A stretch of DNA of 63,641 bases from a virus (taxonomy: Duplodnaviria; Caudoviricetes), in the IMG/VR virus record IMGVR_UViG_3300032311_000461, positions 1-63,641 of that record, one strand, 5' to 3'. Made by a program: the position numbers and the translations under genes. The notes under the pieces were generated by a model. The model had not been told where the DNA came from. It made no database searches and saw nothing but the letters and a program-made list of their open reading frames with translations. Positions 3,340 through 33,466 of the stretch are shown piece by piece (within the stretch, counting starts at the first letter, position 1; each line of letters begins with the position of its first letter).

Positions 3340-4557
3340 CTAGAAAGCAGTTAGGGCTACACGTTTCCAGCTACCACTGGCGACACAAATATAAAGGTAG
3401 TTGGCATCCCATCTCATTGTTCCAGCCACACCGGCAGCGGCAGAGTTGGCGGGAGTGAATGCAGCGTTCCCAATTACAGCGGGTGAGGGAATGCTGTTGG
3501 CCGCGAACGAATGGGCAAGTCCGGTGCTGGTGATGTTGCCAACTACTTCCACTGCCCCTCGCAGAGCAGTGTCGCCACCCACTTCAAGCTGCTTAGTCGG
3601 GACAGCAAAGTTCAGCCCAGTGCGACCCTTGAAGTAAACGTCTGCGGCTGCCTGAGACTCAATCGCATAGCTTCCAGTTGCCGCGACAAGTTCCGCACCG
3701 ATATACAAGCCGACATTGCGGGTAGCTCCACCACTGGCAAAGGCTTGCAGTCCGTAGTTGGTGTTCGCCGTTCCGGTAGCTTCCCCACGAACCCCAACAC
3801 CAACACTGCACGTTCCACTTGCAGCACCCGCAATGGCTGTGACGCTACCGCTGGTGAGGCTTGAGCCGATTGTGCTGGCAGCAAGTGCGACCGATGTTTG
3901 TCCTGTGCCGGTGCCGGTCTGGTCGATGCGGACAGCATCACCAAACTCCGTCCGCTTTATTCTCACCCCGCCCGTATCATTGACGAAGAAATTATCGGCA
4001 CCGATTGAAAGCGTTCTCCCTTTGGCAGCGGAGCAGGCGAGGGCAATGTCCGCGCCGGGCTGACCTGATGCGTAGCCGGTTGTGGTGAACGACATCACGC
4101 TCTCAAAGTACCCGTCTGCCGTTTCAGCACTTGTCGCGGTAACTTGTATCTGAGCCGTAGTCCTGTCGGCAGCACCATTGCTTGGCTTGGTCTGCCAACG
4201 CATAAACCCCAGCGAGGTGTTTACGGTGACGGCGGTTGGTGCGGCGAGAGTGCCGAGTTTTTTGCGGAAGAGTAGACCGGCGGCTCCTGCTCCTACGTTG
4301 TAAATCTCAGCAAAAGACGAGCCGCCCTCACGAACTGCGTGAAGCACTGTCGCCGGATGGATAGCCGTTGCCGGTGTCGTGAACGTCGCACCGACTTGAA
4401 TGCCCAGCGAGCCGGTCATGTTATCGCCAGCCTTCTTCACATAGCGAGCGTCAACGTCTGTGGTGCTGGTCAGTACGTTGCCATCAGCGTCCAGCTTGGT
4501 GACGTTGGTTGGGTCTTTGGATACAGCCCGCAGGGGCCAGAGAATTGTGTCGGACAT
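3340..4557 (-). CDS. Tail fibre protein
   Basis: ARYVKKAGDNMTGSL fibre motif, Gly/Ala/Thr-rich beta repeats, C-terminal GTMRWDANYLYICVASGSWKRVAL. Confidence 0.75.
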   Translation of the reverse strand: MSDTILWPLRAVSKDPTNVTKLDADGNVLTSTTDVDARYVKKAGDNMTGSLGIQVGATFTTPATAIHPATVLHAVREGGSSFAEIYNVGAGAAGLLFRKKLGTLAAPTAVTVNTSLGFMRWQTKPSNGAADRTTAQIQVTATSAETADGYFESVMSFTTTGYASGQPGADIALACSAAKGRTLSIGADNFFVNDTGGVRIKRTEFGDAVRIDQTGTGTGQTSVALAASTIGSSLTSGSVTAIAGAASGTCSVGVGVRGEATGTANTNYGLQAFASGGATRNVGLYIGAELVAATGSYAIESQAAADVYFKGRTGLNFAVPTKQLEVGGDTALRGAVEVVGNITSTGLAHSFAANSIPSPAVIGNAAFTPANSAAAGVAGTMRWDANYLYICVASGSWKRVALTAF

Positions 4558-27129: not shown

Positions 27130-27581
27130 CCCCGTTTGTGTTTTTCGATTTACTCCAGCACCAGAACTAACAGATATACGCCCACACGCGGGGGGGCCCG
27201 GGAGCCCGCCTGCAAGCCCGCACAGGCCCGCGATTCTTCGCCCGCCCGCCCCTAGCCGCGACCGCCCGCCGCCCCGCAGAACCGCAGCCACGCGGCCACA
27301 CGGGCACTCCCGGGCATGGGCATGGCGTGGAAGCCCCGGTTGGCCCTTGGTTCCAAGGGGCAACCTCCCCACTTTTTGGGGGTTTTTCGGCTGACCAGCG
27401 GTGATTTTTTCACCACCCGGTGAACTTTTCCTCACCACCAAGGGGGGGTTTGTTGTCACCTTCGGTGGTCAGGCTGGCAGCTTTCCGCCACGGGCTGCGC
27501 GTTTGCGGTCATGGGCCCGCGCTGTCTTCCCCGGGTGTGTGCGTCCCCTCGCGTGCGCTGTCTTCGTGTGTGTGCGCCCGG

Positions 27582-27611
27582 AATCCCCGGAGGGGATTTT
27601 GGCCCTCTGGT
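27582..27611 (+). repeat. Hairpin-box element 1 (AATCCCC-GGA-GGGGATT-T-TGGCCCTCTGGT)
   Basis: 7-bp stem, 3-nt loop, 1 nt, conserved 12-mer. Confidence 0.9.
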
Positions 27612-27670
27612 TGTTGTCGGCAACGGCCAGTGTGGTCGCTGCGGCACAGCACACAACGGGAGGCACGGTC

Positions 27671-27874
27671 ATGCACACAGTCGAGCAGTACGTCAACGGG
27701 GAGTTCGTGGTGGCGGCACGGTTCACCGACATTCAGGACGCATACGAGTTCGCCAACGACATCGACGGGCTCGTCATCCCTGAAGGGATGACCGACGAGG
27801 GGGCGATTGCCAACCGGCGGCTGGATTTCATGGAGGCCGCTTGCGGGTGGTTCTGTGCGGCTGACGAGCGGTGA
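27671..27874 (+). CDS. Early hypothetical protein
   Basis: MHTVEQYVNGEF, GGGAGG SD. Confidence 0.75.
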   Translation: MHTVEQYVNGEFVVAARFTDIQDAYEFANDIDGLVIPEGMTDEGAIANRRLDFMEAACGWFCAADER

Positions 27875-27892
27875 GCCCTCGCACACACGCGG

Positions 27893-27922
27893 AGTCAGGG
27901 GACCTGACTGTGGCCCTCTGGT
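27893..27922 (+). repeat. Hairpin-box element 2 (AGTCAGG-GGA-CCTGACT)
   Basis: Same geometry, covarying stem. Confidence 0.9.
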
Positions 27923-27927
27923 TGGTG

Positions 27928-27973
27928 GCGGTGGCTGATCGGCAGCCTGACGGGTTCGATGCCCGTTCACCGC
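27928..27973 (+). ncRNA. Anticodon-less tRNA-like element 1
   Basis: GCGGTG/CACCGC closing stem, GCTG-ATCGG-CAGC hairpin, GACGGG-TTCGATG-CCCGTT T-arm. Confidence 0.7.
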
Positions 27974-28009
27974 ACTGGGTTCGGTTGTCCATTCACGGGA
28001 GGAACGATC

Positions 28010-28414
28010 ATGCAAGGGGTCATGCGGCAGGCAGTGACGGGGCGGAAGATTGAGCAGCGCATGGAGCGGGCCATGCGATGGGGCTTTGAAGACTGGCGGC
28101 AGACGAACACTGCGGTCACTTCGTTCTACGAAGGGCCCCTGTGGGTGCAGGAAATTCGCCTGCACGGCAACCTGATTGCCCGGGTCGAAAGGGGCTGCAT
28201 CGGGACCCGAAAGTTCGGCCACCGTCAAGTGAAACTTGACCACTGCGGCTGGAAGACGGCGACCACGAAAAGCCGCATGAACGCAGTGCTGAAAGCACTC
28301 GACCTGCCCATCAGCGTGTACCAGAGCAAGGGCGAGTGGTTCCTCTGGAACCAGACGGCGACCGTTCCGGCTGGTCGCTTTGACGATTTCAACGTGATCA
28401 CGCTCAACCCGTAA
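28010..28414 (+). CDS. Conserved phage early protein
   Basis: IRLHGNLIA...GWKTATTKSRMNA motif seen in many phage proteins; GGGAGG SD. Confidence 0.8.
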   Translation: MQGVMRQAVTGRKIEQRMERAMRWGFEDWRQTNTAVTSFYEGPLWVQEIRLHGNLIARVERGCIGTRKFGHRQVKLDHCGWKTATTKSRMNAVLKALDLPISVYQSKGEWFLWNQTATVPAGRFDDFNVITLNP

Positions 28415-28426
28415 TCACACACGCCT

Positions 28427-28456
28427 ACTCAACGGAGTTGAGTGTGGCCCTCTGGT
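28427..28456 (+). repeat. Hairpin-box element 3 (ACTCAAC-GGA-GTTGAGT)
   Basis: Same geometry. Confidence 0.9.
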
Positions 28457-28460
28457 TGGC

Positions 28461-28506
28461 AGCGACGGTGATCGGCACCGTCCGGGGTTCGACTCCCCGG
28501 GTCGCT
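28461..28506 (+). ncRNA. Anticodon-less tRNA-like element 2
   Basis: AGCGAC/GTCGCT, GGTG-ATCGG-CACC, CCGGGG-TTCGACT-CCCCGG. Confidence 0.75.
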
Positions 28507-28547
28507 CTGTTTCGTGTTCGGTTGTCTCACACACAAGGGGTTTTCAC

Positions 28548-28808
28548 ATGACGGCTACGCAAATTCGGGCGGCACTTCAGGCGGAACGCGACGAGCTTTG
28601 CACCACCTTTGGCTTCGCCAACCGATGGACGGCGATGATTTTCCAGTGGTGCCGCGATGCGGGGTTTGGGGATGACGGCAGTGACCGGGAACTGGGCGAC
28701 ATTGCCTATGACCTGCGGGCCTTCGTGGAGGGGGCGAAAAACGTGCCCGCCTACCGGCTCGACAACGTGGACTTCGTGCAGATCGCACTCTGCTTGCAGA
28801 TCGACTAA
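28548..28808 (+). CDS. Early hypothetical protein
   Basis: 86 aa after the CACACACAAGGGG leader. Confidence 0.75.
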   Translation: MTATQIRAALQAERDELCTTFGFANRWTAMIFQWCRDAGFGDDGSDRELGDIAYDLRAFVEGAKNVPAYRLDNVDFVQIALCLQID

Positions 28809-28860
28809 GGCCGAAACCGGGGAAACCCGGTCGCACCGTAACGCGGTGCCTGACGAGGCC
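28809..28860 (+). ncRNA. Hammerhead ribozyme (type II) 1
   Basis: GGCC-GAAA-CCGGG(GAAA)CCCGG-TC^-GCACCG(TAACG)CGGTGC-CTGACGA-GGCC; full catalytic core, cleavage after C28832. Confidence 0.92.
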
Positions 28861-28897
28861 ATTCGTCCCCCTGATTGGTCGATGGGGTCACTCGACT

Positions 28898-28938
28898 GCC
28901 TCCCGGTGGACGTTCCATCGGGGGGCTTTTCTTTTCTT
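28898..28938 (+). terminator. Intrinsic terminator
   Basis: GCCTCCCGGTGGA/TCCATCGGGGGGC stem plus TTTTCTTTTCTT. Confidence 0.75.
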
Positions 28939-28957
28939 CACGCGAAGGATCACACCC

Positions 28958-29227
28958 ATGTTGGTGCCTGACTATGACCGGATGATCGACGTTTTCCCGG
29001 GCGAAACCTATGAGGTTCTCATGCCCTATTCCGAAGTGTGTATGCACATGGGAATCGCGGGGACCGTTCGACGGATTCTGGTCCGCGAAGCGGGGCAGGG
29101 CGTTTACCTGCTGAACGATGACCTGACAACGGGCCCGCACATGACGAGCGGCGAGGCCGGGATTCTGGGTTGCTCACACAGCCATCCCTACACCTACGGG
29201 TTCAAGTACGAGCCCTCCCGTGCGTAA
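28958..29227 (+). CDS. Early hypothetical protein
   Basis: 89 aa, AAGGA SD. Confidence 0.7.
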   Translation: MLVPDYDRMIDVFPGETYEVLMPYSEVCMHMGIAGTVRRILVREAGQGVYLLNDDLTTGPHMTSGEAGILGCSHSHPYTYGFKYEPSRA

Positions 29228-29256
29228 TTCCCCGGAGGGGAATGTGACCCTCTGGT
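29227..29256 (+). repeat. Hairpin-box element 4 (ATTCCCC-GGA-GGGGAAT)
   Basis: Same geometry, box TGACCCTCTGGT. Confidence 0.9.
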
Positions 29257-29260
29257 TGGC

Positions 29261-29310
29261 AGCGGTTGGCTGACGGAAGCCTCTCCCCGGTTCGACTCCG
29301 GGGAACCGCT
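29261..29310 (+). ncRNA. Anticodon-less tRNA-like element 3
   Basis: AGCGGTT/AACCGCT, GGCT-GACGGA-AGCC, CCCCGG-TTCGACT-CCGGGG (T-stem inverted relative to element 2). Confidence 0.75.
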
Positions 29311-29346
29311 CTGTTTCGGGTTCGATCACACACAAGGGGCACCATC

Positions 29347-29676
29347 ATGGCATGGTCGATTTCGATTACAGCCGAAGGCTGGGCTGACATCCGCAAGGAA
29401 CTGGAAACGTGGGACCGGCAGCGGATTATCGACGCACTGGCTGACGATGCGTTTGAAGCTGCGGAGCAGGCCAACGGCGACGATGGCAAGGGCTACGAGG
29501 AAACCGTGTCGCCCGACGATGCGGCGGATGCCTGCCGTGCCAGTCTGGAATCGGCGGCGGATGACACGCTGGTTGACGCTGCGATGGACTGCATTGAGCG
29601 CAACAACACTTGCGACAACGGCGGCTTCCGGTACTGGATCGACCGGGAGGGGTATCACGGGGTAACGCTCGACTGA
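29347..29676 (+). CDS. Acidic early hypothetical protein
   Basis: MAWSISITAEGW, 109 aa. Confidence 0.75.
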   Translation: MAWSISITAEGWADIRKELETWDRQRIIDALADDAFEAAEQANGDDGKGYEETVSPDDAADACRASLESAADDTLVDAAMDCIERNNTCDNGGFRYWIDREGYHGVTLD

Positions 29677-29678
29677 CA

Positions 29679-29730
29679 AGCCGAAACCGGGGCAACCCGG
29701 TCTGCCAGTAACGCTGGCACTGACGAGGCT
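29679..29730 (+). ncRNA. Hammerhead ribozyme (type II) 2
   Basis: AGCC-GAAA-CCGGG(GCAA)CCCGG-TC^-TGCCAG(TAACG)CTGGCA-CTGACGA-GGCT; stems covary with copy 1. Confidence 0.92.
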
Positions 29731-29755
29731 ACACACTCACAACGGGAGCCATTCA

Positions 29756-30097
29756 ATGGCCGAAAAACTGACGATTGGTGGCGTGGAAATCACGGTGGTG
29801 GCAGGCGACTGCGACCGGGAAGGCCGGACGGTTTTCACCTACACCCTGAAGGGTGCCGGGATCGACCACGAAGCCAGCGACCTGAAATCCGGCTGCGGTA
29901 GCAGGGGCCGGAAGGACCGTGACGGGATGGAATCCCTCCTGTCCTTCCTTGGTGCGGCGGCGGAAGCCTACGGATACCACCTTCGGATGGGCGGCGGGAG
30001 TGACAACGGCGACCTTTTCCCCCCGGAGGTCATGGAATGGGCCTATCAACACGACAACGAAATCAGCATGGCTGCCGACGAGTACGCATATGCGTAA
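29756..30097 (+). CDS. Early hypothetical protein
   Basis: 113 aa, GGGAG SD. Confidence 0.75.
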   Translation: MAEKLTIGGVEITVVAGDCDREGRTVFTYTLKGAGIDHEASDLKSGCGSRGRKDRDGMESLLSFLGAAAEAYGYHLRMGGGSDNGDLFPPEVMEWAYQHDNEISMAADEYAYA

Positions 30098-30125
30098 CCA
30101 ACGGAGTTGGTTCTGGCCCTCTGGT
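30096..30125 (+). repeat. Hairpin-box element 5 (AACCAAC-GGA-GTTGGTT)
   Basis: Same geometry. Confidence 0.9.
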
Positions 30126-30129
30126 ATTC

Positions 30130-30178
30130 GACGGTTGTGGTTCGGCCACCGTCCGGGGTTCGATGCCCCGGAACCGTC
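30130..30178 (+). ncRNA. Anticodon-less tRNA-like element 4
   Basis: GACGGTT/AACCGTC, GTGG-TTCGG-CCAC, CCGGGG-TTCGATG-CCCCGG. Confidence 0.75.
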
Positions 30179-30211
30179 CTGTGTTCGATTGCCCACACTT
30201 GGAGAGCGACC

Positions 30212-30526
30212 ATGACGAAACAGGAAGAGATTGACCTTCTCAAGACCTTTGTGGGCAACCTGCCCGAAGGGTATCTCAAGGATGCACTGGCACCGTTTGT
30301 GCCTGACTTTGAGTGTGGCATTCGTAGCGACATCGTGCCCTCAGTGTGGGATTCCTACCACGCTCGGGTCAAAGCTGACGAAGACCGGGATCGGTCAGAG
30401 CGGCTGGCCCGGATTGCAAAGTCTCAGGCCGACAAGGAAGAGCAACGTCTGCTTGCCGCACAGCGGGCGGTGGACGGCTATGCGGCTTCAATCAAGCAAA
30501 CGCTGCGGAGCTTGACCGGGAACTGA
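30212..30526 (+). CDS. Early hypothetical coiled-coil protein
   Basis: MTKQEEIDLL, GGAG SD. Confidence 0.75.
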   Translation: MTKQEEIDLLKTFVGNLPEGYLKDALAPFVPDFECGIRSDIVPSVWDSYHARVKADEDRDRSERLARIAKSQADKEEQRLLAAQRAVDGYAASIKQTLRSLTGN

Positions 30527-30602
30527 CGGTATCCAACCACCCTCTCCCTTCGGGGAGGGGGAAATTGGGGATCGTTGGTTACACACACAAGAGGGTTCGA
30601 CC

Positions 30603-30995
30603 ATGAAATTCGACCGGAAATTCGACAAGTTTGTCGGCGTTGGGGACACGATCAAGGCAGACATCACCGACAAGATGCAACTCGTTGCCACTCTCGTCTA
30701 TGACGATCAGTGCCAGCCCACAGACTTCGACTGCTACGAGGAAGCCGACATTGAGCGGTGGAAGAATGACGAGTGGATTTTCGTGGGGATCGTGTTGTCC
30801 ATTCAATCGCACGACGGCACGATCCACACACGCCTTGATTCCCTTTGGGGAAACGAGGCCAACCTCGGTGACAACAACGATCACCTGACCGACGTTGCCA
30901 ACGAGTTGATTGACGAGCGGGACATCGTTGACGCACTGCGGAAGATTTACGAACCCGTAACCCGGGCGATTGAGACTCTCACACGCACAGCCTAA
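30603..30995 (+). CDS. Acidic early hypothetical protein
   Basis: 130 aa, WKNDEWIFVGI...SLWG motif. Confidence 0.8.
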   Translation: MKFDRKFDKFVGVGDTIKADITDKMQLVATLVYDDQCQPTDFDCYEEADIERWKNDEWIFVGIVLSIQSHDGTIHTRLDSLWGNEANLGDNNDHLTDVANELIDERDIVDALRKIYEPVTRAIETLTRTA

Positions 30996-31019
30996 CAGAG
31001 TTAGGCATGACCCTCTGGT
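30990..31019 (+). repeat. Hairpin-box element 6 (GCCTAAC-AGA-GTTAGGC)
   Basis: Same geometry, AGA loop, overlaps the upstream stop codon. Confidence 0.9.
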
Positions 31020-31038
31020 TGGTATCGGTTGGATGACG

Positions 31039-31070
31039 GCCCCGGCAATTTCGCCGGGGCTTTTCTTTTT
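31039..31070 (+). terminator. Intrinsic terminator
   Basis: GCCCCGGC/GCCGGGGC plus TTTTCTTTTT. Confidence 0.8.
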
Positions 31071-31092
31071 CACACACAAGGGGACCGCAACG

Positions 31093-31467
31093 ATGGCAAA
31101 CGACAACTACACCGAGAACATGGCCGACATTTTCCAGTGCCCCCGGGAAAGGCGGATGGTGCTGGAAATCCTGAAGGCATGGGAGTCCGGCGGGCTGCCG
31201 AAGGACTTCGATGACAGGGGCGTGAAGCTGGCGTTCAACCGCAGTAGCGGCAACGTCTTCCTCGTCAACGAGGAATATCAGGTGGCAATGGTGGAGGGGC
31301 TCTGTCTGGAGTCCTTCTACTCCAGCCCATACGAGGGCAAGGAGGGGTTCTTCACCGACCTCCTGAGCGAGTACCCGTCGATGCACCGCGAGGATCAGGA
31401 GTGGTTCCGCGACATCGCAGAGGCGACCGGCAAGCAGGACTTGCTGCCCGCCTTGGACGACGAGTGA
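31093..31467 (+). CDS. Early hypothetical protein
   Basis: FNRSSGNVFLVNEEYQVAM...SPYEGKEGF, 124 aa. Confidence 0.8.
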   Translation: MANDNYTENMADIFQCPRERRMVLEILKAWESGGLPKDFDDRGVKLAFNRSSGNVFLVNEEYQVAMVEGLCLESFYSSPYEGKEGFFTDLLSEYPSMHREDQEWFRDIAEATGKQDLLPALDDE

Positions 31468-31469
31468 CA

Positions 31470-31566
31470 GGGCGAAACCGGGGCGGGCTGGGTAGGGGCA
31501 TTGCGTCCCCACTAAATCCGGCAAGCCTGCCCCGGTCTGTGGGTACTTTCCCACACTGACGAGCCC
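31470..31566 (+). ncRNA. Hammerhead ribozyme (type II) 3 with extended stem III
   Basis: GGGC-GAAA-CCGGGGCGGGCT...AGCCTGCCCCGG-TC^-TGTGGG(TACTTT)CCCACA-CTGACGA-GCCC; cleavage after C31537. Confidence 0.88.
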
Positions 31567-31581
31567 ATTACGAGGTGCAGC

Positions 31582-32043
31582 ATGAAGCGGTATCAGGTGC
31601 GGTTCCACCTTGCCAAAGGTGAAAACCACGGGAAGTGGCAGGTCAAGAGCATGGCCGGGGTGCGGTACTACGATCCCGCTGCCGTGAGCCTGACCCTGTT
31701 GGATTGCCAACTGCGGAACCAACCCGCGACGGCAAAGAAGGTCTATGACGGTGCGAACAAGTCGGTGTGTGCGTGGATCGACTGCAACGAGGTGCTGACG
31801 GCAGCACCGCACACCCCGGCGGGACTGCCGGTGTCCTACGATCCCCGGGTTGCACCGCATTGGCGGAACCTGACGGGCGGGAACATCGACGGCATGAGCC
31901 TGTCTGTCCTGCGGACGGTGAGCAAGAGCGTGTTCTTTACGGGAGAGCGGACGATCACAGTCGGCGGTCTGGTGCAGCTTGCACCACCGGCTGATGAGCG
32001 GGAGGAAGAACTGCGGATGACCCGCATGAGGAGGGAGCGATGA
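31582..32043 (+). CDS. Early hypothetical protein
   Basis: VRFHLAKGENHGKWQVK...KSVCAWIDC, GAGG SD. Confidence 0.8.
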   Translation: MKRYQVRFHLAKGENHGKWQVKSMAGVRYYDPAAVSLTLLDCQLRNQPATAKKVYDGANKSVCAWIDCNEVLTAAPHTPAGLPVSYDPRVAPHWRNLTGGNIDGMSLSVLRTVSKSVFFTGERTITVGGLVQLAPPADEREEELRMTRMRRER

Positions 32044-32261
32044 GCCACACAACGACGATGATGGACCTGACCCGGGGTGAGCTTTCCATCCTTGCTACCG
32101 CTCTTGAGAGAGAGTGGCAGCGGACTGGCAAGCTGTGGACCGATGGTAACCGGGACGGTTGGTATGACGAGAAGGCGAAGGAGCGGGTGGCCGTCCACCT
32201 GCATGAGACTGAGCGGCTTTTCAACAAGGTAAACACACGCATCAAGGAGCTTGACGCATGA
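32040..32261 (+). CDS. Early hypothetical protein
   Basis: 73 aa, ATGA coupling. Confidence 0.7.
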   Translation: MSHTTTMMDLTRGELSILATALEREWQRTGKLWTDGNRDGWYDEKAKERVAVHLHETERLFNKVNTRIKELDA

Positions 32262-32279
32262 ACTGGTAACGCACACACG

Positions 32280-32309
32280 GCTCAACAGAGTTGAGCATGA
32301 CCCTCTGGT
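32280..32309 (+). repeat. Hairpin-box element 7 (GCTCAAC-AGA-GTTGAGC)
   Basis: Same geometry. Confidence 0.9.
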
Positions 32310-32318
32310 TGGTATCTG

Positions 32319-32351
32319 ACCCCCGGCAATTTCGCTGGGGGTTTTTCTTTT
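32319..32351 (+). terminator. Intrinsic terminator
   Basis: ACCCCCGGC/GCTGGGGGT plus T-run; same AATTTC loop as 31039. Confidence 0.8.
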
Positions 32352-32367
32352 AACAAGGGGATGAGCG

Positions 32368-32781
32368 ATGGCAACGTCAGACATTATTGCGGCAATGGCA
32401 GCGGGCACCACGGCGACGGCAACCAAGCGGGTTGGACGGGGCAAGGCGGCGGTGGAGGTGACCATCACCCGGACTGCCCCGGAGGTGGTGGTGGTGGACG
32501 AGACAGTGAAGGAGGAGCCGGTCAGCTACAGCAACAAGCTGCCGGTGGACGAGGGCAAGCGGGCGGTGGATGTGCTGCCGGGGCTGCGACTGTGGGCCTA
32601 CTCCCGGGGCTATCGAGTCTTGGAGCAGACCGGAAAGACCTACACCGGCAGCAAGGCAAAGCTGCGGCGGGTTCTGTACCGGGATGACCTGATCCACCTC
32701 GCCAACATCCTGTTGGAAGAAGCGGAGAACACGCTGACCTATGACGAGGCTCACGGCAATGCGGATGCCGTGCCCTTCTAG
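32368..32781 (+). CDS. Early hypothetical protein
   Basis: 137 aa, ends DAVPF. Confidence 0.7.
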   Translation: MATSDIIAAMAAGTTATATKRVGRGKAAVEVTITRTAPEVVVVDETVKEEPVSYSNKLPVDEGKRAVDVLPGLRLWAYSRGYRVLEQTGKTYTGSKAKLRRVLYRDDLIHLANILLEEAENTLTYDEAHGNADAVPF

Positions 32782-32863
32782 TCCTGCGGCCCACTGCCAA
32801 CTCCCGTGACTGAGACACGGGAGCCAGTTGTGGATCGGGGTTCGATGACACAGGAGACACACG

Positions 32864-33466
32864 ATGACACAGGCAACGAGCATTCTGGGCGACACGATCA
32901 TGGCACAGGCGAAGGCTTTCAAGGAGGCCCGGTCGCAGTTCGATGAGCAGTTCATGGACTGGTCCCGGGGCATCCCGCCTCTGGCACCGGAACACTTCTG
33001 GCCGATGGTCGATGAGTTCCGCGAGGTGCTGATCTACACCATGCAGCACAGGAAGGAAGGCTATGTGGAGGCAGCGGCAGACGAGTTCATGCGGCGGACT
33101 GTGGTAAACAGCGGCGACCTTGCTGCGGCTGTTCACTTCGCCCTGTCGTGGACCCACTACAAGGGCAAGGCGTATGCGGCTGGCGACAAGATGGGATTCT
33201 CGTTCGACCGGGGTGATGACAGCTACGGTGACTTGATGGATGCCGTGCCGCTGCTGGGCCAGAGCTTCAACGAAAGGATGGAGCTTGGCAAGTTCGACAC
33301 GCTGCGTGAGTTCAACGAGCAGGTCGATGCCACCTGCAATGTGGCAGGCCGGTGCCTGAGGAATGAGGTGCTGTTCGGGGAGAACTACTTCTCCATGTGC
33401 CTGCAAGATGCGGCACAGAAGTGGTTGGTGATTGAGTCTCGCAACTACGGAAAGGGAGGTGAGTGA
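32864..33466 (+). CDS. Hypothetical protein
   Basis: 200 aa, CAGGAG SD, GDDSYGDL motif. Confidence 0.8.
   Translation: MTQATSILGDTIMAQAKAFKEARSQFDEQFMDWSRGIPPLAPEHFWPMVDEFREVLIYTMQHRKEGYVEAAADEFMRRTVVNSGDLAAAVHFALSWTHYKGKAYAAGDKMGFSFDRGDDSYGDLMDAVPLLGQSFNERMELGKFDTLREFNEQVDATCNVAGRCLRNEVLFGENYFSMCLQDAAQKWLVIESRNYGKGGE

Follow-up and report, generated by a model that had tools for sequence, protein, structure and literature searches.

Predicted type II hammerhead ribozymes behind stop codons in a tailed phage genome and their exchange with other intergenic RNA modules

Clustered hammerhead ribozymes that flank phage genes were described by Perreault et al. in 2011; three of the arrays cleave in vitro, and a role in the processing of messenger RNA (mRNA) was proposed (PMC3088659). 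Three type II hammerheads near hypothetical and phage-like genes of Desulfovibrio vulgaris cleave in vivo, as detected by cyPhyRNA-seq (PMC8782182), and a 2019 review regards the role of bacterial and phage hammerheads as still largely elusive (PMC6765202); the three papers are cited here for those parts of their text that were available. The present analysis concerns three elements of this type, called HH1, HH2 and HH3, in the window, by which is meant the entire 63,641-bp record of a virus of the Caudoviricetes (IMGVR_UViG_3300032311_000461). Features lie on the + strand unless otherwise stated. It is fairly probable that these are three functional type II hammerheads in rightward early transcripts, and that they cut these transcripts into single-gene mRNAs with structured ends. 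Both the elements and the mRNA-processing idea belong to the kind published in 2011 (PMC3088659, available text). What seems to be new in the papers searched, although it may be described elsewhere, is the measured docking of such ribozymes on stop codons and their exchange, slot for slot, with modules that resemble transfer RNA (tRNA) or form long hairpins.

HH1 (28809..28860) and HH2 (29679..29730) are each 52 nucleotides (nt) long, with stems II, III and I of 4, 5 and 7 base pairs (bp), respectively. HH3 (31470..31566) is 97 nt long, with stems of 4, 12 and 6 bp in the same order, and its stem III bears an extension of about 45 nt. The strand order is common to all three: a 4-nt strand of stem II, GAAA, a capped stem III, GUC, a capped stem I, CUGACGA, and the second strand of stem II. 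Loops thus close stems I and III and stem II is open, as in the type II hammerheads of Rfam family RF02276 and of PMC3088659 (available text), whose catalytic core is also identical. The core residues C3 U4 G5 A6 N7 G8 A9 and G12 A13 A14 are complete in every copy, as are the A15.1–U16.1 pair and a nucleotide 17 other than G. The latter is C17, at 28832, 29702 and 31537, and cleavage is predicted to follow it. When all 66 CTGANGA sites of the two strands (32 + 34) were tested, the descriptor scan returned HH1, HH2 and HH3 and no others. A preliminary description of the locus had placed three type II hammerheads at these coordinates, with complete CTGACGA, GAAA and GTC core segments and with cuts expected after the same three cytidines; the scan bears out the placement, and the core as read here agrees in each particular, the cuts themselves being predictions.

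Complete cores with three helices are found far more often here than chance would allow. In isolation, HH1 and HH2 adopt the hammerhead fold as their minimum free energy (MFE) structure, with z scores of -3.0 and -3.4, and the MFE structure of isolated HH3 is likewise a hammerhead. Of 200 dinucleotide-preserving shuffles of the window, 15 gave one match to the lenient descriptor (mean 0.075), and stem lengths as observed were reached by a single match in all 200. A covariance model was built from 26 sequences of the 52-nt form, with HH1 and HH2 included and HH3 left out. Searched against the whole window with filters off, it gave 75.4 and 74.5 bits (HH1 = 74.5) for its two self matches and 21 bits (E 7e-4) for HH3; the next-best site in the window scored 12 bits (E 0.4).

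Further evidence comes from other viral contigs. The search pattern consisted of GAAA, stem III and GUC alone, and at least 118 viral-contig stretches matched it; all figures given here and below for other viral copies derive from the matches listed for this pattern. Type II hammerheads were recognized by descriptor in 55 of the 118 loci, and the compact form is common in viral contigs. CUGANGA follows within 60 nt in 77 of the 130 pattern matches listed and is lacking there in 53. Stem I was not selected for pairing by this pattern, and yet at least five contiguous pairs are formed in 58 of the 62 unique sequences among the 77. Thirteen core columns are invariant across 105 aligned viral copies. 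When 26 copies of the 52-nt form are aligned without gaps, both-side changes occur in 12 of 15 pairs; the 100% pairing in this alignment follows by construction, since its members were selected by the pairing descriptor. The preliminary description had credited stems I–III with covariation among the three copies. Within the window this holds for stems I and II but not for stem III, whose first 5 bp are identical in all three, and covariation of stem III is seen only in the wider viral family. Taken together, the full core, the type II topology and the compensatory helix changes in related and unrelated viral copies support the assignment of all three elements as type II hammerheads.

The copies in other contigs include variants. 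Fewer than three direct stem II pairs can be formed in 22 of them, most of which represent a variant with one additional nucleotide between CUGANGA and stem II, a form that the first descriptor overlooks. The additional nucleotide, usually U, was seen at 4302-4354 of L121 (genome G003), at 3659-3711 of G004 (the reverse complement of L123) and in some 20 other viral loci; in the sister phages G003 and G004 this variant is the ortholog of HH2. Copy number can be high, with nine hammerheads in 4.1 kb of L028, eight in L065 and in L104, and seven in L022 and in L086 among the matches listed.

In 9 of the 16 listed loci with at least three hammerheads (L002, L022, L028, L064, L069, L079, L080, L086 and L093), one stem II sequence is common to all copies while stems I and III vary. 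A shared stem II could reflect the slow evolution of a helix of 3–4 bp, or a requirement that half-ribozymes from different copies be able to pair. The second possibility bears on the idea that pairs of hammerheads excise the RNA between them (for example 28833-29702), after which reversal of the ribozyme, or an RtcB-type ligase of the host, would join the 5'-OH and 2',3'-cyclic-phosphate ends into circular or spliced RNAs. The end chemistry left by two cuts at a distance of 870 nt would be suitable, and with a single stem II sequence per locus any 3' half could pair with any 5' half. The possibility was itself raised in PMC3088659, the available text of which reports that a circular or spliced product went undetected ("data not shown"). 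Excision is nevertheless very improbable for the present locus: the stem II sequences of HH1, HH2 and HH3 differ from one another, and stem II varies within the lineage of this phage; no RNA ligase was found among the 30 window proteins scanned; and a terminator lies inside the HH1–HH2 interval.

The position of the ribozymes relative to coding sequences is as regular as their structure. TAA at 28806-28808 adjoins HH1 with no intervening nucleotide, and the TGA codons at 29674-29676 and 31465-31467 end 2 nt before HH2 and HH3, so that the 0–2 nt noted in the preliminary description are measured as 0, 2 and 2. The next start codons lie 97, 25 and 15 nt downstream of HH1, HH2 and HH3, and a ribosome-binding site stands between ribozyme and start codon after HH2 (GGGAG) and HH3 (GAGG). 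The same docking is found in other viral contigs. Among the copies listed, 96 have enough flank for the distance to be determined, a stop being counted where it ends an open frame of at least 50 codons; the hammerhead starts -3 to +5 nt from such a stop in 63 of the 96, compared with 1080 of 20000 random positions of the same loci (5.4%). A looser count of stop proximity gives 75 of 109. At the median, the upstream stop is 2.5 nt away and the next possible start 24.5 nt, and the upstream gap is the smaller one in 85 of the 96 copies. Of 112 copies listed, 93 have an A immediately 5' of stem II and 99 a purine immediately 3' of it; the conserved A is often the last base of the stop codon.

Neither docking on stop codons nor alternation with tRNA-like elements was found described for phage hammerheads in the literature searched, which excludes subscription papers and supplements. 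The words "stop codon" are absent from the main text of PMC3088659, so that the placement rule is unstated there; its supplements were outside the scope of the search. Resting on 96 independent copies, the rule supplies an easily applied prior on position when such ribozymes are to be annotated in viral metagenomes, in which the compact form escapes the Rfam cut-off.

Such close apposition to stop codons could mean that cleavage is coupled to translation. A ribosome terminating at the adjoining stop would cover stem II, GAAA and half of stem III, so that only poorly translated transcripts would be cut, and the ribozyme would serve as a trigger of decay or as a switch for downstream translation rather than as a constitutive separator. 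Several observations are in keeping with this idea: the spacing of 0–2 nt between stop codon and ribozyme in the window, and of -3 to +5 nt in 63 of the 96 listed copies; the A just 5' of stem II in 93 of 112; the occurrence of the stop codon inside stem II in several copies, such as TAG in G003 and the copies after gene L in G001 and G002; the 6 nt between the end of HH3 and the ribosome-binding site of gene J; and the prediction that the HH1 core can pair instead with 3' flanking sequence. However, tight packing of a compact module in a short spacer already explains the adjacency, and a long hairpin of the same gene block also starts in a stop codon, so that adjacency is not specific to ribozymes. 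No ligand- or protein-binding domain is evident, and the stem III extension of HH3 is absent from its ortholog in G002. We therefore regard conditional cleavage of this kind as unlikely.

If, as we favor, the hammerheads divide the transcripts constitutively, each would fold after the ribosome has left the adjoining stop codon. The cut after GUC would fall 24 nt (HH1), 26 nt (HH2) or 70 nt (HH3) beyond the stop. The upstream mRNA would retain its stop codon and end in the GC-rich hairpin of stem III with a 2',3'-cyclic phosphate, and the downstream mRNA would carry a 5'-hydroxyl (5'-OH) directly on the stem I hairpin, 15–97 nt ahead of the next start codon. Because the 4-bp stem II alone joins the two halves, the products would be expected to part readily. 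A multi-gene transcript would in this way become a set of single-gene mRNAs with nuclease-resistant ends, each expressed independently of its neighbors. Cleavage, the fate of the ends and the nucleases that would act on other modules of the region are what we infer.

Related phages allow the arrangement to be compared. Against the hammerhead model, five related viral records give 4, 5, 2, 1 and 1 matches; of the five in G002, one is weak and lies on the opposite strand. In the four relatives compared in detail (G001, G002, G003 and G004), hammerheads are interleaved with T-loop motifs as in the window, and the occupants of orthologous slots vary among hammerhead, tRNA-like element and conserved long hairpin. 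Ahead of gene H, G001 and G003 carry a hammerhead, and the window (at 30524-30582) and G004 an interrupted hairpin; the leader downstream is common to all. Following gene I, there is a hammerhead in the window (the 97-nt HH3) and in G002 (54 nt), and the hairpin in G001 and G004. HH3 and its G002 ortholog share stem II and flanks and differ by three compensatory pairs in stem I, and the ortholog lacks the stem III extension. After gene L, G001 and G002 have a hammerhead, and the window has a structure of another kind. Slot exchange, like the sequence, fold, conservation and placement of the elements, is directly observed. Insertion of a mobile element was considered and rejected, because relatives show replacement by another module of similar size in the slot and no empty sites.

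These linkers are 85–100% identical although the flanking genes have been replaced. HH1 is identical at 51 of 52 nt in L048, L055 and L089, and HH2 at 52 of 52 in L055 and L089, while gene C, upstream of HH1, has only 47.6% protein identity in relatives with the 51/52-nt HH1. An 84-nt stretch of G002 is 100% identical to window positions 29677-29760, comprising HH2 and the leader of gene F, and the open reading frames (ORFs) that flank it in G002 have no detectable similarity to genes E and F of the window (blastp E >0.3). Between unrelated ORFs, the region of tRNA-like element 4 is 94.5% identical and that of the hairpin 85%.

Such conservation invites the view that the intergenic modules (52–130 bp) act mainly at the DNA level, as short homology linkers for the exchange of gene cassettes by homologous recombination, and that ribozyme activity is incidental or ancestral. 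The 84-nt stretch, which G002 places between ORFs unlike E and F, and the 94.5% and 85% identity of the other two regions between unrelated ORFs are in keeping with homology linkers, and the phage has genes for an ERF-type annealing protein and a PDDEXK nuclease. The pattern of change nonetheless indicates selection on RNA, with compensatory pairs in the stems and 13 core positions invariant in the 105 aligned copies listed, and the placement is strand-specific and tied to stop and start codons. A DNA linker requires neither compensatory stems nor codon-tied placement. It is thus quite improbable that the modules act mainly as DNA, though the two roles can coexist.

If the transcripts are processed as we favor, the hammerhead would be one of several interchangeable intergenic modules, conserved linkers between replaceable gene cassettes. 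Intrinsic terminators would be another, as would the tRNA-like element, probably a substrate of ribonuclease (RNase) P and RNase Z, and the extended hairpin, probably one of an RNase III-type enzyme. That hammerheads exchange slots with elements shaped like RNase P/Z and RNase III substrates suggests a shared role in forming RNA ends. By extension, the region may tentatively be pictured as an early accessory-gene array punctuated by interchangeable RNA-end modules (hammerhead, tRNA-elbow mimic for RNase P/Z, RNase III-type hairpin and terminator) that insulate the cassettes and serve as junctions for their exchange, each module docking on the upstream stop and being followed by a standard CA-rich leader. 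Were this array to prove correct, slots with different modules would constitute a natural experiment in which phage hammerheads are functionally equivalent to host-nuclease processing sites.

Several observations weigh against constitutive separation of genes by functional ribozymes. When 30-nt flanks are added, the predicted MFE structure retains stems I and III of all three elements, but other pairings take the place of the 4-bp stem II. For HH1, the prediction pairs some of the core with the 3' flank: GACGAG of the 3' core would pair with a downstream UUCGUC (28850-28867), giving an alternative, inactive fold. Most type II hammerheads have a pseudoknot that joins loop I to the 3' tail (PMC3088659, available text) and that they use for fast cleavage. 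It is not enriched in the compact form, the longest complementary run of loop I and a 16-nt 3' tail in 112 compact copies listed being distributed as with shuffled tails; cleavage rates could therefore be low. All three elements fall short of the gathering threshold of 37 bits of Hammerhead_II (RF02276), with 21.3 bits for HH1, 31.1 for HH2 (E 0.0017) and 19.7 for HH3. Of 21 sequencing runs checked, the 20 that hold parts of the phage are DNA runs, mostly lake-water metagenomes, and no RNA run among the 21 holds phage sequence. A strong terminator lies 37 nt downstream of HH1, which is thus not needed to separate cistrons at that point, and with two further strong terminators in the block the transcripts may be shorter than assumed. 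The nuclease resistance proposed for the ends draws on the protective effect of 5' hairpins and 5'-OH ends in bacterial mRNA decay in general.

The preliminary description had named the Rfam hammerhead models as a check. RF02276 is the best family for all three copies, with alignments that cover the full model, but each copy is under the cut-off. Searched over the whole window at gathering thresholds, Rfam reported nothing, and in evalue mode at E <=0.5 it reported HH2 and one tRNA-like element alone, with no twister, pistol, hatchet or HDV-like ribozyme. The shortfall is explained by the short loops, the 4-bp stem II and the absence of the 3' tail of the Rfam model. Relative to RF02276, the window contains a compact subclass of 52-nt form, in which a 4-bp stem II is bounded by a conserved A (5') and a purine (3'), the pseudoknot is not enriched, and scores lie below the cut-off. 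Sub-threshold scores, a short stem II and a pseudoknot that is not evident might also be expected of decayed relics or chance look-alikes that lack the ability to cleave. It is hardly credible that this is what they are: the core matches the consensus at every position in every copy, the chance expectation is 0.075 per genome, and the copies are conserved in relatives more strongly than the neighboring genes. Moreover, natural hammerheads with a stem II of as few as two pairs are reported to be common (PMC3088659, available text).

That the hammerheads are systematic gene separators, as had been proposed, may reasonably be inferred from the stop-codon rule and the slot-for-slot exchange, with a reservation for HH1: given the strong terminator 37 nt beyond it, HH1 may trim a 3' end rather than separate cistrons. 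Cleavage at HH1 together with a working terminator at 28898-28926 (within the segment 28861-28936) would free an RNA of about 100 nt, extending from the 5'-OH stem I hairpin to the terminator; this predicted RNA would hold a variant of the CCCUCUGGUUGG motif.

The resemblance to described systems is close in some respects and limited in others. Like the hammerheads of PMC3088659 (available text), those of the window occur in a phage context near recombinase genes, in close copies that flank single genes or short blocks. The Desulfovibrio vulgaris trio (PMC8782182, available text) is likewise of type II and located near hypothetical and phage-like genes, with two members close together; those ribozymes are chromosomal and their cleavage has been measured, whereas the present ones belong to an uncultivated lake-water phage known from sequence alone. 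The window phage and its four relatives nevertheless provide a compact test bed, in which the same slot holds either a hammerhead or a host-nuclease-type element ahead of the same leader and gene. If cleavage were confirmed, it would furnish a direct argument for ribozymes as devices that form the 3' and 5' ends of mRNAs.

Parallels also exist outside the hammerheads. In phage T7, according to work attributed to Dunn and Studier, RNase III processing sites reportedly lie between the early genes, with a structured RNA in each spacer and mRNAs that end in a hairpin. The window shares with T7 the structured spacer RNAs of an early multi-gene transcript, and its hairpin at 30524-30582 is of similar general shape; in T7 a host enzyme does the cutting, whereas here three sites would cut themselves and others resemble RNase P/Z substrates. 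Mitochondrial transcripts are punctuated by tRNA shapes that lie between coding regions and are recognized by RNase P and RNase Z. Element 2 of the window matches the mascRNA model (RF01684) from end to end at 32.8 bits, below the cut-off of 42.5; the window elements differ from mitochondrial tRNA punctuation and from mascRNA in that they have no anticodon arm, are not called by ARAGORN and are confined to one lineage among 178 other viral loci. The engineered insulator RiboJ places a hammerhead some tens of nucleotides before the ribosome-binding site, removing upstream context and leaving a constant leader. The phage elements also lie a few tens of nucleotides before ribosome-binding sites, but are natural and stand directly on the upstream stop.

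The hammerheads sit in a rightward block of small genes, most of them without family assignment, in which nearly every spacer carries a structured element. The genes that adjoin the ribozymes, taken from the ORF list, are C (28548..28808, 86 amino acids, with no PHROG or Pfam match), whose TAA stop abuts HH1; D (28958..29227, 89 amino acids), which starts 97 nt after HH1 and past the terminator; E (29347..29676, 109 amino acids, with no PHROG or Pfam match), an acidic protein of isoelectric point (pI) 4.05 whose TGA precedes HH2 by 2 nt; F (29756..30097, 113 amino acids, phrog_21648), which starts 25 nt after HH2; I (31093..31467, 124 amino acids, with no PHROG or Pfam match), whose TGA precedes HH3 by 2 nt; and J (31582..32043, 153 amino acids, with a weak Pfam match to Phage_L5_gp82), which starts 15 nt after HH3. 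The family matches in the block are those of B (Pfam Kyano_Gp96), of F and H (PHROGs of unknown function) and the weak one of J. Nine of the 13 small proteins encoded at 27671-33463 have a pI below 5.2, with A and E both at 4.05; low pI is common among the early anti-host proteins of phages.

Four tRNA-like elements of about 70 nt lie in the block. Element 1 (27912..27981) scores 83.1 bits with the covariance model R2 as a self match and is also supported by fold and covariation; element 2 (28446..28513) scores 73.4 bits with R2 and 32.8 bits with mascRNA-menRNA; element 3 (29246..29317), between HH1 and HH2, scores 86.7 bits with R2; and element 4 (30115..30185), which follows HH2 and gene F, scores 80 bits with R2 and 22.7 bits with mascRNA-menRNA. 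The last three are likewise supported by their fold. Each consists of an acceptor-like stem, a small hairpin and a T arm with a UUCGANN loop; the acceptor stem is 6–7 bp and the T arm 6 bp in the four window copies, and an anticodon arm is lacking. Across 12 distinct copies, 96.1% of cells are paired and both-side changes occur in 9 of 13 pairs. ARAGORN called no tRNA genes in the window, and the elements fall below Rfam cut-offs (32.8 and 22.7 versus 42.5 for mascRNA-menRNA; 22.4 versus 47 for tRNA-Sec). A 9/4 fold like that of tRNA-Sec, taken from the Rfam alignment, was rejected: it pairs in element 2, but at only 4 of 9 positions in element 3, whereas the acceptor/T-arm fold has covariation. 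The statement in the preliminary description that hammerheads alternate with tRNA mimics applies to the order tRNA-like element, HH1, tRNA-like element, HH2, tRNA-like element, and not to HH3, which is flanked by terminator-type elements.

Applied to the 118 hammerhead-pattern loci, R2 found the tRNA-like element only in the relatives used to build it. A scan for the tRNA-like motif yielded 63 viral stretches, 60 of them new loci; there were 11 matches at E <=0.01, all at or below 26 bits, and 3 of the 11 coincide with tRNA-Ile genes called by ARAGORN. The 5' motif thus appears to resemble the D arm of tRNA, but the element itself, at the sensitivity of the model, was not found outside this phage lineage in a search of 178 other viral loci. 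The T-loop motif with one mismatch occurs 16 times in the whole window, with 18.5 expected, and is thus not enriched. Motifs of the CCCUCUGGUUG type recur at 27603, 27914, 28448, 29248, 31011, 32301, 34971 and 36248, just 5' of tRNA-like elements and of two terminator hairpins. In L137, L147 and L163, genuine phage tRNA-Ile genes have the CCCUCUGGUUG words as their D stem and D loop. The tRNA-like element may therefore have arisen from a tRNA, and the motif may imitate the elbow of tRNA on its D-loop side.

The extended hairpin at 30524..30582 comprises 19 bp with two internal loops, and its basal stem includes the TGA stop of gene G. It was delineated from the consensus fold of five copies and from the slot comparison, the other copies being at L120:5166-5237, L122:7963-8033, L123:8424-8494 and L123:9368-9438 (both L123 copies on the - strand). 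Five of the 19 pairs still pair through both-side changes among the five copies. The shape suggests an RNase III-type site. Strong terminator-like hairpins were found by the terminator scan at 28898, 31038 and 32318. The first (28898..28936), 37 nt after HH1, has 13 bp and a T tract, resembles an intrinsic terminator and has a fold z of -3.2. In a terminator-type intergenic element at 31009..31071, recognized by fold, model and terminator scan, the CCCUCUGGUUGG motif comes first, then a hairpin of 9 bp with a T tract. Whatever the upstream module, most of the block's genes have ahead of them the same CA-rich leader (CACACA...) and, after it, a ribosome-binding site of the AAGGGG or GGGAG type; such leaders are found at 28520-28547, 29320-29346, 30575-30602, 31070-31092 and similar positions.

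As a virus record the window is complete: it has direct terminal repeats, and CheckV puts its completeness at 100. Among its gene products are a large terminase, a portal protein, tail proteins and a helicase, together with the ERF-type annealing protein, the PDDEXK nuclease, a serine recombinase and two HNH endonucleases; a match to a tyrosine integrase is weak. This content of structural and recombination genes points to a tailed, probably temperate phage. It lacks a close cultivated relative. A search with the terminase found just 9 phage records, all at or below 27–28% identity (about 27% for Arthrobacter phages), and no match place spanning at least 80% of the query; the 4-kb hammerhead region has no DNA match among 50,697 phage records; and a search of a genome contig collection with the portal protein found no relative and no prophage relative. 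Upstream of the block, between the gene for an HNH endonuclease and the first small gene, about 540 nt (27130-27670) contain no convincing ORF. A very GC-rich run is followed there by T-rich hairpins, and the segment could be an early promoter or regulatory region, or an origin.

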